A stretch of 64,000 bases of DNA from an uncultured Chthonomonadaceae bacterium (lineage in GTDB: Bacteria > Armatimonadota > Chthonomonadetes > Chthonomonadales > Chthonomonadaceae). Below are positions 57,971-63,844 of this stretch, piece by piece. The stretch lies in contig CAWIEK010000049.1 in the NCBI GenBank assembly GCA_963835065.1, forward strand, positions 1 to 64,000. The letters run 5' to 3'. A program made the translations under genes and the position numbers. How positions within the stretch are numbered: the first letter of the stretch is position 1; each line of letters starts with the position of its first letter. Under the pieces are notes generated by a model. That model was not told the DNA's origin, did no database searches, and was given only the letters and a program-made list of their open reading frames with translations.

Positions 57971-58389
57971 GCCGCGCTCCGAATACCGGTTAAGTGTGAA
58001 AAGCGCATTCAGAAAGTGAAAAGAGTGTTCCTCTCCTCTCTTAATGCTACGCTTGTCCTTTAACGCTTACGTGATTGGCGCGAGAATGTCAGCAGGGGAT
58101 GATGCAATAGGAGGTATTCAGGTGTTCGGGTATTCAGGTGTTCAGGTGTTCGGTATTCGGTATTGGGATACAGGTAATTGGTGGGTGGAGGTTGAGGGTG
58201 GATGTGAAAAGCGGCGCGGATGTGTTTCTGCAACGCATCCGTGCCGCTTAAAAGGGCAGCCCCTGCTTCCTACGTTCATGGCGGGAGAACCGGTGAGCAA
58301 CGCCTATCGAGGAGACGCGGGAGGACAGAGGTATGTTCCCAAAATATGACTAATTATGTAGGAAAGGAATATGGCATAGAGGAATTGGT

Positions 58390-60138
58390 TCAGGCGGCCT
58401 GCGCGTTTTGATAGGGCGGTTCGCTGTTTTGCTCCGAAAGCATGTCCAGAAAGGACGTGATAATACGAGGATCGAAATGCTGCCCGGCCTGCTCCTGTAG
58501 ATACGCCTGCACCTGATGTTCCGGCCAGCCGGCGCGGTAGGGACGATTGGAGCGCAGGGCGTCCCAAACATCCACGACAGCAAACAAGCGGGCGGCAAGC
58601 GGAATGTTTTCGCCGCTCAAGCCGTGCGGATAGCCCGTGCCGTTCCATTTTTCATGGTGGCAGTGGGGGATGTTAAGCGCCCGCTGTAAGAAGGCGATGG
58701 GGCAAAGCATCTCGTAAGCGAGAGAGGGATGCTTGCGCATGATCTCCCATTCCGCATCATCAAGCGGCCCCGGCTTGCGCAGGATGCTGTCGGGGATGCC
58801 CATTTTGCCAATGTCGTGAAGCAGCGCCCCCCACCGAATATAGGTCAGTTCGGTTTCATCCAGTCCCATGCGCCGCGCCAGTTTCAGGGTCATCTCAGTG
58901 ACGCGCTCACTGTGCCCTTCCGTTTCCTTATCCCGCAAGTCCAGAATTTGTGACCATCCCTGAATAGTGGCGTCGTACACTTTGCGTAGCGTGTCGTCCA
59001 GAGAGGAGGCGCTGGTGAGAGGAACCGTCAGGCGCAGGTCCGCTTCTTCCTGTTCAAGCGCTTCGTCCTCGGCGTGGCTGATGCAGTTTCGGCCTCGCAT
59101 TTTGGCGCGGTACAGGCATTTATCCGTCAAAGCAATCAGTTCTGAAGCGGATTGTATCTGGTCATTAATGGTTGCCACGCCAAAACTCGCGGTGACGGGG
59201 CGTTCGGGCCAATACGCGGTTTGGATAGCGACACGGAAGCGCTCGGCAGCTTCGCGCGCTCCCTTCGCGTCGGTTTCCGGCAGAATGGCAACAAATTCTT
59301 CGCCCCCGTAGCGGGCGAGAAAATCCGTAGTTCGCGCCGTGCTTTGAAAGATGGCGGCCACGCGCTTCAAGACAACATCCCCGGCGGGATGCCCGAACGT
59401 ATCATTGTACTGCTTGAATTTGTCCACATCCAGCAGGACGACGGAAAGCGGCGTATGGTAGCGCTTGCTGCGCTCGAACTCGCTGCTCAATTGCTCCTGA
59501 AACGCGCGGTGGTTTTTGAGTTCGGTCAGGCCATCCATGGTAACCTGCGTTTGCAGCAGCATGTTGGCCTGATACAATTTGGAATTAGCGGCGGCAAGTT
59601 CCACGCGCTGCGCTTCCATTTCCACATACGCCTCATTGACATGCGTGATTTGAAGCTCGATTTGCTCCTGAAACCACGTACGCTCCGTTATATCGGTATG
59701 TGAGCCGGCCAGATGATACGGCTTGCCATCGGCATCGCGCTGCACGGCTCCCCGCGCCAGAATCCAGCGATAGGTTTGATCTTTGTGACGCAGCCGATAT
59801 TCAACATAGAAGTTGGTTTCCTGAGTCTGCAAATACTGCTGAATGGTTTCAAACACGCGCTGCCGATCTTCGGGATGGATGTGTTCCGTCCAAGCCTCTA
59901 CCGCATTGGGAAATTCATCGTCTTCGTAGCCGAGGATGCTTTTCCAGCGCGCAGACAGGTAGCACGTATTAGTGCGCAGGTTCCAATCCCATAAGCCATC
60001 CTGCGATCCCTGCATTGCCAGGCGATAGCGCTCTTCCGTAGCGTGGAGTGCCGCTTCCGCCAGTCGGCGGCGCGTAAGTTCGGCCTGCCACCGATGCGCA
60101 GCGGGAGGTATTCGCTTTTGGAACACGGAAGGCGTCAT
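58390..60138 (-). CDS. PAS-GGDEF-HD-GYP c-di-GMP enzyme
   Basis: PAS (DGLWDW), RYGGEEF with RxxD I-site, LLHDIGK, HHEKWNGTGYP. Confidence 0.92.
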   Translation of the reverse strand: MTPSVFQKRIPPAAHRWQAELTRRRLAEAALHATEERYRLAMQGSQDGLWDWNLRTNTCYLSARWKSILGYEDDEFPNAVEAWTEHIHPEDRQRVFETIQQYLQTQETNFYVEYRLRHKDQTYRWILARGAVQRDADGKPYHLAGSHTDITERTWFQEQIELQITHVNEAYVEMEAQRVELAAANSKLYQANMLLQTQVTMDGLTELKNHRAFQEQLSSEFERSKRYHTPLSVVLLDVDKFKQYNDTFGHPAGDVVLKRVAAIFQSTARTTDFLARYGGEEFVAILPETDAKGAREAAERFRVAIQTAYWPERPVTASFGVATINDQIQSASELIALTDKCLYRAKMRGRNCISHAEDEALEQEEADLRLTVPLTSASSLDDTLRKVYDATIQGWSQILDLRDKETEGHSERVTEMTLKLARRMGLDETELTYIRWGALLHDIGKMGIPDSILRKPGPLDDAEWEIMRKHPSLAYEMLCPIAFLQRALNIPHCHHEKWNGTGYPHGLSGENIPLAARLFAVVDVWDALRSNRPYRAGWPEHQVQAYLQEQAGQHFDPRIITSFLDMLSEQNSEPPYQNAQAA

Positions 60139-60245: not shown

Positions 60246-60283
60246 AAAAATGCGCCAATGGGAATAGATTTCCCATTGGCGCA
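60246..60283 (-). terminator. Intrinsic terminator closing the tRNA-RNA ligase unit
   Basis: tgcgccaatgggaa/ttcccattggcgca stem followed by TTTTT on the minus strand. Confidence 0.8.
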
Positions 60284-60303
60284 ATAGCATACAGAACATC
60301 CTC

Positions 60304-61359
60304 TTAAACGTCGTGGGTATCCCTGTCTGCGCTTTTGGAGAACAGGTAGGCGTCGCCGATGTACTTCATCGCTACGCGGCCTACCTTTGGGTTGACACGC
60401 TCCACAACCGGCTTCACCACCACGCCTTCGCGGATGTGATTATCATCCAGCGTGGTGCTGCCTTCCGACAGCGCCTTGATGGTGTTCAGGTCGAAAGGGC
60501 CGCGATACAGCAGGGGCACGGTTGCAACGCCGTGTCGGGCGCAAAGAGTGGCAAACTCGTCCGCGTCCAGGTACTTGCCGTCCACAAGCAGATCGAAGGC
60601 GCGAAAGCCCAGCGTTCCCCGGCAGCCGTAATGCAGGTCTTGAATTTTCGAGCCGAACACTTCGCCGAACAAAATCACCTGCCGATGTTCCGCTCCCAAT
60701 TCTTCCAGCAGGGCGCGAACCGGCGGCTGCGAAAGCGGGAACCAGTATGTGCTGTTTGCCCACTGCTCCGTTTCTTCGGGCGGCTTGCGCCGAACGCTCA
60801 TGGAACCGGCCATCCATTCCCCTTCAATCAAAGCAACCCGGCAATTCGTTCCATGGAGCTTCTCGGTAACTGCCACTTCTTCGCCCTCGGTCAACACGTC
60901 CGGGAAGTTGCGCAGATTTTCAATGTCGGTGTATTCCACGAGCAGGGGATGCGGCGGCAGGGCATCTCCGGCAGTTGGCTTGAGCGGCGGGATGTACTTG
61001 GTGATGCCATAATAGGCTTTCACATCCTCGCCTTCCGCCCATTTGGGATTTTCCACGTCAATCAGGACGCCAAAGGACGGTTCGCCACGCAATCGGGCGC
61101 AACGGACGCGGCCTGCGGGCGGAACGGGCGCATCCGGCCCGGTTCGCACCGAAAGGTATTTGGTAATGCCCCACCGGTCGGCGTGTTCCAGCGGAATCAT
61201 GCTGTCAATGGGAATATACGTGACGAGGCTGCCGGCATGGTACTTGCCTTTGGGAACCACGCACTGCCAGCCCTTGATCTGACTCAACTCCAGCGCGTCC
61301 GCGTTGGCATGTGGCAGGACGCGCTCGATTTTGCATACTTCGACAATGCACTCAGACAT
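60304..61359 (-). CDS. ATP-dependent RNA ligase, DRB0094 (Rnl5) family
   Basis: N-terminal OB-like PHANADALE..GWQCVV..YIPIDS, motif I TEKLHGTN, FGEVFG, FRAFD, REGVVVKP, MKYI. Confidence 0.9.
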   Translation of the reverse strand: MSECIVEVCKIERVLPHANADALELSQIKGWQCVVPKGKYHAGSLVTYIPIDSMIPLEHADRWGITKYLSVRTGPDAPVPPAGRVRCARLRGEPSFGVLIDVENPKWAEGEDVKAYYGITKYIPPLKPTAGDALPPHPLLVEYTDIENLRNFPDVLTEGEEVAVTEKLHGTNCRVALIEGEWMAGSMSVRRKPPEETEQWANSTYWFPLSQPPVRALLEELGAEHRQVILFGEVFGSKIQDLHYGCRGTLGFRAFDLLVDGKYLDADEFATLCARHGVATVPLLYRGPFDLNTIKALSEGSTTLDDNHIREGVVVKPVVERVNPKVGRVAMKYIGDAYLFSKSADRDTHDV

Positions 61360-61388
61360 GAATGTAGCCCTCTTCCCAGATCGTAATA

Positions 61389-61467
61389 TGAGAGTGGAGG
61401 GAATCGAACCCCCTTGCTTTCGCCACAAGGTTACAGCTTGCTGCCCGACCATTTAGGCTTCACTCTC
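61389..61467 (-). tRNA. Atypical tRNA-Tyr(GTA), no encoded CCA
   Basis: GAGAGTG/CACTCTC-A acceptor, GCCT/GGGC D stem, GCAAG-CTGTAAC-CTTGT, variable arm GC-GAAA-GC, GGGGG-TTCGATT-CCCTC. Confidence 0.85.
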
Positions 61468-61470
61468 AAA

Positions 61471-61593
61471 ATTCAGGTATTCGGGTGTTCAGGTGTTCAG
61501 AATAATATGACAGTAATACGTTTGCTGCTGCGCAACTAGACTTGCAGTTTAGCTCCTGAATACCCGAACACCTGAACACCCGAATACCTGAAT
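61471..61593. repeat. Inverted pair of 8-mer arrays (ggtattca/ggtgttca) between the two tRNAs
   Basis: attcaggtattcgggtgttcaggtgttcag ... ctgaatacccgaacacctgaacacccgaatacctgaat. Confidence 0.85.
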
Positions 61594-61596
61594 GTA

Positions 61597-61671
61597 TGGA
61601 AGCGGTCGGAATCGAACCGACAACACGTACTTTGCAAAAGTACATCGCTGACCCTTAGGACATGCGCTCCC
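61597..61671 (-). tRNA. Atypical tRNA-Ala(TGC), no encoded CCA
   Basis: GGGAGCG/CGCTTCC-A acceptor with G3:U70, GTACT-TTTGCAA-AGTAC, GTCGG-TTCGATT-CCGAC; weak D arm. Confidence 0.8.
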
Positions 61672-61706
61672 GTATAGTTTGTTGATTACGTGACACTTCC
61701 TGAATG

Positions 61707-61747
61707 CAAAAATACAGCCCGGCCTGAGTTTCCAGACCGGGATGTGC
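61707..61747 (-). terminator. Attenuator-type terminator between leader ORF and tRNAs
   Basis: gcacat-cccggtctg-gaaact-caggccggg-ctgtatttttg. Confidence 0.75.
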
Positions 61748-61776
61748 ATTGTCGTCATGGAAGAGACGATTCCGCG

Positions 61777-61899
61777 TTAAGACGGTGCTGGAAGGCACAA
61801 CGGTAATGTATATCCGGCGGCATACGCATAGCCGACGGCTTGCGCGTAAGCATAGCCGGTGCAGGCGAGATATGCGGTTGTGGCCGGTGTGGTGTTCAT
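61777..61899 (-). CDS. Putative Tyr/Ala-rich leader (attenuator) peptide, 40 aa
   Basis: Own translation MNTTPATTAYLACTGYAYAQAVGYAYAAGYTLPLCLPAPS; 6 Tyr and 10 Ala; ends ~30 nt before a terminator. Confidence 0.7.
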   Translation of the reverse strand: MNTTPATTAYLACTGYAYAQAVGYAYAAGYTLPLCLPAPS

Positions 61900-61953
61900 G
61901 CTGCTCTTGCTTTTCAAAAGTTTGTCAAAAGTGATGATTACGTTGAAGCCGCT

Positions 61954-61970
61954 TGTAAAATGCGTTTACA
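61954..61970. promoter_or_regulatory. Operator-like palindrome TGTAAA-N5-TTTACA
   Basis: tgtaaa-atgcg-tttaca, ~55 bp upstream of the leader ATG. Confidence 0.45.
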
Positions 61971-62281: not shown

Positions 62282-63844
62282 ATGAAAGAAGTACCCATGA
62301 ACAGGAACACTGTTGCGCCACTGGAGGCGCTGTTCCAAAAACGAAGCGAGATGGGAGAGCGCGTGATGGCTTTGGATTGGTCTCATACGCCTTTGGGACC
62401 GATAGAAGGCTGGCCGCAGAGCCTGCGCATGGCTGTCGGAATCTGCCTCAACAGCCGCTTTCCCATGTTCGTCTGGTGGGGACCCGAACTCATTAACATC
62501 CACAACGATGCGTATGCTCCCATTTTGGGACTGCGGCACCCGGCTGCGCTTGGTATGCCTGCGCGGGAAATCTGGGCCGAACTCTGGCCCGTGATTGGAG
62601 CCGAGGTAGACGCGGTGATTCGGCGCGGCGAGGCGGTGTCCCATGAACGGGTGCGCCTGGTGCTGGAGCGTAACGGCTACCCGGAGGAGACGTACTTTAC
62701 GTACTCGCATAGCCCTATCCCCGACGAGCAGGGTGGGATTGGCGGATTGTTCCAGGTTTGTACGGACGAAACCGCGCAGGTACTCGCCGAACGGGAGCGA
62801 GACCGCATGGCCGCGCAACGGCAACTGGCGCTGGACGCGGCGGATATGGGCTGGTGGCACTATGACCCGAACACCAGAGTCGCAGCCTGGGATGACCGTT
62901 ACAAGGAAATTTTTGGCGTCACGGGCTATCAGCGTCCGAATGATGAAATTCTCGCTCGTATTCACCCGGACGACCTGCCGGGCGTCTGGGCGAAAGTGGA
63001 GGCGGCGCTGAACCCGCTTGACCCCCAGCCTTATGCGACCGAGTACCGCATCTTCCGTGATGCGGGGAATGTGCGTTGGATTGAGGCGCGGGGAGTCGCC
63101 ATGTTTGAAGGCGAGGGCGCGGCGCGGCAGGCGACGAGTTTTGTGGGCACGGTAGCCGACATCACGGAACGCAAGCGCGCCGCAGACGCCTTGCTCGCGC
63201 GTTCGCAGGAGATTGCGAACCTCAATGCGCGACTCACGCGGGCGATGAAAGAAACGCATCACCGCGTCAAAAATAACCTGCAAGTGATTGCGGCCATGAT
63301 CGAAATGCAGGTGCTGGAACACCAAAACGATCAAACCGTTCCTATCGCGGAGTTTGTTCGGCTGAAAGCGCATGTGCATACGCTGGCGATTGTGCATGAC
63401 CTGCTGACCAAGAGCGTGAAGGAAGAGGAAGACGCGCAGCGAGTTTCGGCCAGAGCCGTATTGGAGAAATTGTTACCCATGCTGCAGCGCACCGCCTGGC
63501 AGCAGAATGTGCGCTACACGGTAGATGAGGCGTATCTCACTTCCAAGCAGTGTATTGCCCTGTCGCTCGTACTCAATGAATTGGTTTCCAATGCCTTGAA
63601 GCATGGCAGGAAGGAGGCAGAAGTGTTCTTTAAGGTGGACGGCCAAAACGCAAGCCTGTCCGTATCCGACGATGGGCTTGGCTTTCCCGATGGCTTTGAT
63701 CCGAACAAGGCCGCGAATACCGGGCTGGAACTTGTTGGCAGCCTCGTCCGCACCGACCTACAGGGAACCCTCGTCTACGGCAACCAACCGCAGGGCGGCG
63801 GGCAGGTCAGCGTCGTGTTTCCTTTGCCGCCGGACGAAGCATGA
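62282..63844 (+). CDS. Cytoplasmic PAS-PAS sensor histidine kinase (HisKA_2 type)
   Basis: DWSHTPLGP..WP PAS, ETHHRVKNNLQ, NELVSNALKH, DDGLG. Confidence 0.9.
   Translation: MKEVPMNRNTVAPLEALFQKRSEMGERVMALDWSHTPLGPIEGWPQSLRMAVGICLNSRFPMFVWWGPELINIHNDAYAPILGLRHPAALGMPAREIWAELWPVIGAEVDAVIRRGEAVSHERVRLVLERNGYPEETYFTYSHSPIPDEQGGIGGLFQVCTDETAQVLAERERDRMAAQRQLALDAADMGWWHYDPNTRVAAWDDRYKEIFGVTGYQRPNDEILARIHPDDLPGVWAKVEAALNPLDPQPYATEYRIFRDAGNVRWIEARGVAMFEGEGAARQATSFVGTVADITERKRAADALLARSQEIANLNARLTRAMKETHHRVKNNLQVIAAMIEMQVLEHQNDQTVPIAEFVRLKAHVHTLAIVHDLLTKSVKEEEDAQRVSARAVLEKLLPMLQRTAWQQNVRYTVDEAYLTSKQCIALSLVLNELVSNALKHGRKEAEVFFKVDGQNASLSVSDDGLGFPDGFDPNKAANTGLELVGSLVRTDLQGTLVYGNQPQGGGQVSVVFPLPPDEA

Follow-up and report, generated by a model that had tools for sequence, protein, structure and literature searches.

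The 64 000-nucleotide window analysed here (positions 1 to 64 000 of contig CAWIEK010000049.1, assembly GCA_963835065.1, from an uncultured Chthonomonadaceae bacterium whose genome we call G000) carries on its minus strand a cassette in which a short leader open reading frame (ORF), rich in Tyr and Ala codons, and an intrinsic terminator precede tRNA-Ala(TGC), tRNA-Tyr(GTA) and an RNA ligase gene. We regard it as likely that this is a ribosome-sensing transcription attenuator gating a two-tRNA remnant of a stress tRNA and RNA-repair array, the spare tRNAs and the ligase being transcribed upon ribosome stalling. Four observations lead to this reading: the anatomy of the locus, a leader and a terminator that are both conserved, the complementarity of the leader's end to the terminator, and the match between leader amino acids and operon tRNAs across loci. 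All six parts listed in an initial annotation of this DNA (leader, terminator, two tRNAs, ligase and closing terminator) are present in the order given there; a strand complementary to the terminator (61793-61784, leader codons 36-39) and a promoter-like motif (62021-61994) are additions to its list.

The match across loci was studied in 39 leader-terminator loci, 9 of a family A and 30 of a family B, selected through the ligase or through a terminator pattern, irrespective of composition. Their tRNA sets were taken from ARAGORN with a fixed chaining rule and are possibly incomplete at locus ends (G424, mL071, G053b). Among the 37 loci having tRNAs, a tRNA amino acid is missing from its own leader in none of 196 pairs, and amino-acid absences total 84 across the 39 leaders. 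When arrays are shuffled among the leaders, 21.6 conflicts are expected, falling to 16.4 and 13.4 when leaders are dereplicated at 60% (n = 23) and 45% identity (n = 12), with p at its floor, 0.0025; these loci are kin and not fully independent, and the statistics rest on permutation with dereplication rather than on a tree. The deficit remains without G000, its congener G002 and a third strongly biased locus, G423b (p ≤ 0.0075). It holds in family A alone (p ≤ 0.01); family B alone, reduced to only 5 clusters at 45%, gives a median p of 0.015 and a worst of 0.07. Because leader starts were hand-picked after some compositions had been seen, which counts against us, and because long arrays have longer leaders (r 0.54 between leader length and array size), the comparison was repeated in two ways. 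A size-preserving null, expecting 9.0 conflicts on dereplicated sets, leaves the deficit in place (p 0.001), and windows that do not depend on the start, covering the last 38, 45 and 50 codons, show 7.7, 4.3 and 3.3 conflicts against 28.7, 23.1 and 19.2 expected (p 0.001). The +1, +2 and reverse frames of the leaders show no significant deficit (p 0.23, 0.45 and 0.06). The initial annotation had proposed asking whether leader composition co-varies with tRNA identity; across these loci it does.

Individual loci make the same point. Tyr is present in 29 of 29 leaders with a tRNA-Tyr downstream and absent from 6 of the 10 without one. One genome, G053, has two such loci: the array with Trp, Tyr and Phe tRNAs has a leader devoid of His, Lys and Val, the one with His, Lys and Val a leader devoid of Phe, Trp and Tyr, and the set missing from each leader is also absent from its own array. 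A 17-type array lacking Trp (L063) has a leader that lacks Trp only, and an 18-type array lacking Cys (G314) one that lacks Cys only. G423b (L182, G423:C1:5042319-5043900, minus strand) consists of tRNA-Pro, tRNA-Met and rtcA; its leader contains 6 internal Met codons (the median is 0) and 10 Pro codons (19%). Its tRNA-Met has U1:G72 as first pair and may be initiator-like. The general rule is the presence of an amino acid in the leader, not its enrichment.

Several loci were left out of the 39: G415 (frameshifted leader), G056 (hairpin facing away from the tRNAs) and G117 (variant terminator); G034, G048, G053:C87 and G347, which lack a U-tract or a downstream array and were taken as chance matches; G211, G420 and G364:C31, where the contig ends within 200 nucleotides; and the duplicates or near-duplicates L067, L073 and L089. 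Neither leader family was seen at the ligase loci G001, G013, G024, G015 (only 270 nucleotides upstream), G400, L014, L032, L065, L066, L075-L077, L079-L088, L090 and L091. Four leaders of other families (the long arrays of G000 and G002, L031 and L026) were scored apart, as out-of-sample cases.

In the window, the leader (61899-61777) encodes 40 amino acids, 6 Tyr and 10 Ala. Its Tyr content is exceptional: of 5,878 intergenic ATG ORFs of 25-60 amino acids in G000 it alone reaches 15% Tyr, the comparison being that some residue is as strongly enriched in 209 of these ORFs. With 15% in G000 and 13% in G002, the two leaders have the highest Tyr fractions of the 39 (median 2.8%). The leader is also conserved, its absence from relatives having been named beforehand as a refuting outcome: a search of the 67 other genomes of the order gave one significant orthologue, in G002 (E 2e-8), with 17 identical codons, 8 that differ synonymously and 15 that are changed or gapped, dN (nonsynonymous divergence) 0.24, dS (synonymous divergence) 0.72 and dN/dS about 0.34. 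Twelve weak matches from the search over the 68 genomes of the order (E 0.06-0.49) were set down to chance. Five of the six Tyr codons are kept in G002, two of them through synonymous swaps. The initial annotation had matched the enriched residues to both tRNAs; Tyr carries this signal, and the Ala part is weak and not codon-specific.

Behind the leader, the intrinsic terminator (10-bp stem at 61741-61718, U-tract at 61712-61708) can be opposed by the leader's own last codons. The segment 61800-61727 folds at -22.8 kcal/mol (z -3.2), and the antiterminator helix between codons 36-39 and the terminator 5′ arm is the preferred fold as long as the terminator 3′ arm is unmade, with a predicted pairing probability of 0.8 when that arm is left out. 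It encloses a small hairpin between leader stop codon and terminator (61752-61769), predicted in G000, G002, G019 and G033. In all nine family-A leaders, a CCAG core stands in frame 0, 4-6 codons ahead of the stop, and is complementary to the terminator 5′ arm; the two strands covary (CCAGAC with GTCTGG, CCAGAT with ATCTGG). In family B an analogous strand lies in codons for PPIA, with covariation of CGATTG/CAATCG versus CGATCG/CGATCG. Folds and family-A covariation are in line with the attenuation proposed in the initial annotation, the leader end being able to pair with the terminator. All six Tyr codons, at positions 10, 16, 18, 24, 26 and 30, lie at least 6 codons upstream of the antiterminator strand.

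From this arrangement a mechanism can be proposed. A ribosome reaching the stop codon would cover codons 36-39 and the terminator would form, while one stalled at or before Tyr30 would free these codons to pair with the terminator 5′ arm before the 3′ arm is made. Stalling on the Tyr codons, perhaps also on Ala codons, would in this way allow transcription of the spare tRNA-Tyr, tRNA-Ala and ligase. Each leader codon would act as a sensor for the supply of that charged tRNA, and selection should therefore keep the codon as long as the operon supplies the tRNA and relax once the tRNA gene is lost. Other causes of stalling, such as antibiotics or ribosome damage, probably trigger the switch too. 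The cassette likely works like a whiB7- or his-type attenuator, with translation and read-through as predictions: a short conserved ORF stands before an intrinsic terminator ahead of the presumably regulated genes; a predicted ribosome-coverable antiterminator is exclusive with the terminator, though weaker at equilibrium; and the putative sensing codons lie upstream of it and are tied to the function of the operon, matches for Ala and at the isoacceptor level being absent.

A separate promoter between terminator and tRNAs had also been named as refuting; no sigma-70-type promoter lies there. The promoter-like motif, GCAACT-N17-GTCAA, lies 95 nucleotides upstream of the leader; G002, G019, G033 and G001 have it in the corresponding position with the same spacing. 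In G000 it also stands ahead of the long tRNA array and of a TROVE-like operon and, as a one-base variant, ahead of rtcB. We infer that it may be read by an alternative sigma factor. A genome-wide scan gave 15 occurrences against 11 in the control, which is barely higher; the evidence is therefore positional only, and no regulon is claimed. A promoter pattern run on 5 genomes returned only general sigma-70-type sites.

The initial annotation took the cassette for a stand-alone two-tRNA system, and this we would revise, since it looks rather like a reduced member of the long stress tRNA arrays. Within the order its terminator pattern was matched in 10 of 68 genomes, and in a sample of the phylum in 7 of 401; in 7 further genomes of the order, a terminator of this family is followed by tRNA arrays or rtcB. 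Where these matches lie behind a leader ORF (family A), tRNA arrays follow in G019, G033, G053 (twice) and G058, and rtcB in G054. The array order is Trp, Ala, Ala(CGC), His, Tyr, Pro, Glu in G033 and G019, and the ligase comes after Tyr, Pro, Glu in G053, G058 and L063; from these gene orders we infer that the cassette is an Ala, Tyr and ligase remnant. With only two tRNAs, against 7-28 in loci of the same terminator family and tens of genes in long arrays generally, it is to be read as a remnant of such arrays and not as a member. Family B, found in 19 of 39 genomes of another family, stands before arrays that include genes for Rnl5, an Rnl1-like ligase, RtcB, RtcA, TROVE and PcfJ-like proteins. 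Several rtcB genes in these operons are about 835-850 amino acids long.

What may be the other part of the array lies on the same contig, as a 16-gene tRNA array without Ala, Tyr and His. This long array (C49:429807-432286, L213) and its counterpart on C4 of G002 (L231) have their own 59-codon leader, terminator and complementary strand, and their switch is a third putative attenuator family. Leaders of long stress tRNA arrays hold 17-20 amino acids, and the long-array leaders of the window's genus are without Tyr and His, as are their arrays. The array may have split in this genus into a 16-tRNA block with a Tyr-less leader and an Ala, Tyr and ligase block with a Tyr-rich leader. An island carrying an integrase gene interrupts the array at tRNA-Phe, Ser lying on its far side. 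In G000 an overlapping 27-codon upstream ORF supplies the three amino acids missing from the main leader; its ATG is not conserved in G002. A Tepidisphaerales record (L031) has a 34-codon leader with 19 amino-acid types before a 28-tRNA array containing the ligase.

Both tRNAs of the cassette duplicate housekeeping anticodons, the counterparts in G000 being Ala(TGC) at C51:118874 and Tyr at C63:224374. Tyr(GTA), at 61467-61389, scores 48.2 bits against Rfam RF00005; it shows a compensated anticodon-stem change in G002 and is of another sequence type than the tRNA-Tyr genes of G019 and G053. Ala(TGC), at 61671-61597, was found by ARAGORN and is atypical, its function being putative: it lies below the RF00005 threshold, has C8 and almost no D-stem, and so departs from a canonical tRNA. 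Yet in 4 of 4 genomes having it G3:U70 is retained, and its stems (acceptor, anticodon and T) show compensated changes; the anticodon is CGC in its three homologues and TGC in the window.

The ligase (61359-60304, 351 amino acids) is, as judged from profile and motifs, a member of the Rnl5 (DRB0094) family of ATP-dependent RNA ligases, as had been annotated. It matches TIGR02306 with 192 bits (cut-off 151), has domains PF21189 and PF09414 with an N-terminal OB domain, and is similar over its full length to the Naegleria ligase NgrRnl (5COT; E 2e-19). Set against the motifs listed for the Deinococcus enzyme DraRnl in the portion of PMC1807946 that deals with them, it has motif I (TEKLHG, with Lys167), III, IIIa, IV (EGVVV) and V; motif Ia (Ser-Lys/Arg) is doubtful, Ser186-Met187 lying at about its position, with basic residues at 190-192. 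Its nearest relatives are in Chthonomonadaceae and Capsulimonadaceae (Armatimonadota). Like DraRnl (DR_B0094) and NgrRnl, it joins an OB module to an adenylyltransferase; unlike here, where the family sits in tRNA arrays, usually right after tRNA-Tyr, DraRnl is described in sections of PMC1807946 and PMC5397189 as sharing its operon with an exonuclease-like gene and as protective against radiation. In G002 the ligase gene (L145) is split by an inserted ORF of 299 amino acids, transposase-like by eye. The G001 ligase (L146) has an in-frame insertion of some 350 amino acids beside motif I, intein-like by position.

Small cassettes with a ligase keep tRNA-Tyr in 15 of 17 cases, those without in 1 of 7, and at least 4 distinct tRNA-Tyr sequence types precede the ligase. 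This suggests a link between tRNA-Tyr and the ligase that is confounded by synteny among kin. That the ligase repairs nuclease-cut tRNA, as first supposed, finds no support. Cleavage by an anticodon nuclease, colicin E5 for example, produces cyclic-phosphate and 5′-OH ends, and the cassette encodes no end-healing enzyme; direct tRNA repair would therefore need an additional one. A search for an end-healing kinase with AAA_33 gave 4 matches, all on other contigs. Rnl5 itself seals 3′-OH/5′-phosphate nicks in duplexes, its physiology being called uncharted in the relevant part of PMC5397189.

A number of results weigh against our interpretation. As regards the switch, full-length folds favour the terminator (P 0.95), also when the region under a stalled ribosome is masked, and the switch could therefore operate only kinetically; the antiterminator duplex of G000 is no better than in codon shuffles (p 0.36), and the Shine-Dalgarno sequence of the leader is weak. 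Since the same switches also gate cassettes without tRNA, they are not tRNA-exclusive. Three ligase loci of the same family (G001, G013 and G024), of which two also have tRNA-Tyr, carry the promoter motif without any leader or attenuator being seen. Among family-B leaders, that of G415 is frameshifted with a stop and that of G163a has a slipped frame. As regards composition, the Tyr-rich form comes from one lineage (2 genomes), and only G000, G002 and G423b show a strong enrichment beyond mere presence; all 14 leaders of small family-B Tyr cassettes have only 2-3 Tyr (z ≤ 0.8). Only 5 of the 10 Ala codons are kept in G002, whose leader, with 6 Ala in 39, shows no persisting enrichment. Codon choice fits no better: just 4 of the 10 Ala codons in the window are GCA or GCG, the G002 leader has no GCG codon ahead of its tRNA-Ala(CGC), none of 4 leaders before a tRNA-Val(TAC) has a GTA or GTG codon, and overall a match at the codon or isoacceptor level adds no signal (14 against 17.5 expected, p 0.17). 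Finally, two of the four out-of-sample leaders (the G000 long array and L031) lack Val despite a tRNA-Val in the array, Val being the sole amino acid in conflict there. Of the initial proposal that loss of functional tRNA stalls the leader ribosome and relieves termination, conservation, pairing and covariation have held up; the stand-alone status, the Ala signal and tRNA repair by the ligase have not.

What other explanations could account for the locus? One is that the leader belongs to a generic translation-stress attenuator answering antibiotics or ribosome damage, its Tyr and Ala richness coming from drug-specific stalling contexts or from an internally duplicated GYAYA motif and not from tRNA identity. 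Chloramphenicol and linezolid stall ribosomes after Ala, Ala is common in all collected leaders (median 14.5%), and the cassette leader contains two 15-nucleotide direct repeats. The same attenuator families also stand ahead of rtcB or a ligase with no tRNA, or a distant one, in G054, G179a and G155, and a cyanobacterial trn array with rtcB is induced by chloramphenicol, as reported in part of PMC8421152. We nevertheless find this explanation unlikely, as it leaves without an account the absence of conflicts in 196 pairs, the reciprocal G053 leaders, the cassette with Pro and Met tRNAs and the retention of Tyr codons through synonymous changes; it is moreover compatible with the attenuator we propose, in that a composition sensor would answer general stalling too. 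It is quite improbable, in our opinion, that the match between leaders and tRNAs merely reflects shared ancestry and leader length, the leader in the window decaying and its terminator being constitutively on or bypassed. The correlation of leader length with array size, the origin of most family-B loci in one genus, the split ligase of G002 and the close relatives without a leader could be taken in this sense; against it, the signal outlasts dereplication, size-preserving nulls and fixed windows, is significant in family A alone and is absent from the other frames, and the leader's dN/dS and the compensated changes in terminator and tRNA stems do not suggest decay. Least probable of all is that the tRNAs are decoys or repair substrates for tRNA nucleases in what is mainly a ligase-induction module: the nearly D-stem-less tRNA-Ala, whose anticodon loop could be closed by extra pairs, the retention of tRNA-Tyr beside the ligase and the idea, discussed in a passage of PMC8421152, that tRNAs from operons might serve as sponges for toxin RNases would fit, but identity elements, like the anticodon arms, are conserved with compensated changes, the Tyr-ligase link partly reflects the shared synteny of related loci, and 23 of 26 Anabaena trn-operon tRNAs are given as functional in the same source.

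The attenuator proposed here combines a known mechanism, of the whiB7 type, with a new output and a new inventory match. Amino-acid operon attenuators (trpL, hisL, pheL, thrL, ilvL, and pheM before pheST) likewise have leaders rich in cognate codons and stall-dependent antitermination, but their output is biosynthetic enzymes or a synthetase and not the tRNA itself, and in the cassette, unlike in them, the antiterminator strand lies inside the last ORF codons. No conserved 1:2 protector hairpin was found at the cassette, without a systematic search. Another relative in kind is the upstream ORF (uORF) of whiB7/wblC in Actinobacteria, which combines with a terminator/antiterminator and holds a nearly complete amino-acid inventory with one residue enriched; its composition was shown experimentally to set which shortage is sensed, and loss of its start codon raises read-through (10.1101/2023.06.02.543512). 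Its target is a transcription factor rather than tRNA genes, and no match of uORF inventory to a tRNA set is described in the available portion of that report. For Corynebacterium, the accessible part of PMC11109978 deals with an ilvB uORF and places uORF candidates only before enzymes. The cyanobacterial trn long array (L-array) with the TrcR regulon resembles our loci in its supernumerary tRNAs duplicating housekeeping anticodons, in RNA-repair genes nearby or co-regulated, and in its stress induction; in Anabaena, array and rtcB are induced by translational stress via promoter repeats and TrcR, according to sections of PMC8421152 and PMC10272220. There the repressor TrcR acts at promoter repeats, and the cassette differs further in having 2 tRNAs and Rnl5, not RtcB. 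The strings ‘leader’, ‘attenuat’ and ‘terminat’ do not occur in the main text of PMC8421152, in which Armatimonadota are unmentioned. The literature covered (titles and abstract openings, with most subscription journals and supplements outside the scope) yielded no case in which a leader peptide attenuates tRNA genes or Rnl5, in line with the initial annotation, which knew of no leader-controlled tRNA and ligase system.

If the attenuator operates as proposed, tRNA genes would be under direct decoding feedback, closing a loop that is commonly ascribed to synthetase genes and to those of amino-acid biosynthesis. The attenuator would be a second, repressor-free control of ‘cryptic’ tRNA arrays, whose regulation is, as far as the cited passages go, described for cyanobacteria only, and it would point to a substrate class for Rnl5 ligases. 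Each natural leader would be deaf to a defined list of amino acids, with G053 as a reciprocal pair. One may go further, and here we are at the level of speculation that could well prove wrong: throughout Armatimonadota a widespread feedback loop might exist in which the leader inventories the tRNAs of its operon and, once arrays fragment, re-specialises, becoming Tyr-rich for tRNA-Tyr and Rnl5 or Pro/Met-rich for tRNA-Pro/Met and RtcA. Rnl5 might then be devoted to tRNA-Tyr as its partner, and the composition of a leader might tell which tRNAs are attacked in nature.

As to the surroundings of the cassette, a closing terminator (14-bp stem and U-tract, 60283-60246, minus strand) follows the ligase. 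A PAS-GGDEF-HD gene (58390-60138, minus strand) and a PAS histidine kinase gene (62282-63844, plus strand) flank the cassette; similar genes flank it in the congener, so that the locus is a stable chromosomal one there. The long hairpin between the two tRNAs (61471-61593, a 28-bp inverted repeat) was considered as a part of the system and rejected: it is an interspersed genome repeat with 180 core matches, and the sequence of G002 differs there. This repeat, which has an 8-nucleotide period and forms long inverted repeats, is also found at 58108-58161 of the window and often adjoins tRNA genes. In G000, rtcB (C7:25776-28023) is in two pieces about 1 kb apart, with the variant of the promoter motif and no leader-terminator upstream. 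Further unusual genes resembling tRNAs (Glu, Cys, Cys(ACA), Ser) stand outside arrays, behind unrelated genes (C19:164-333, C49:587868-587941 and C22:76608-76691), and HNH-like ORFs, recognized by eye, lie directly upstream of housekeeping-type tRNAs for Thr, Ser and Pro (C27 and C11 of G000; L177, L180). At C45:51850-52760 (L214), a TROVE/Ro60-like gene lies behind the same promoter motif, a 66-amino-acid ORF and tRNA-like segments, whose T and D arms look permuted and which are possibly Y-RNA-like elements.

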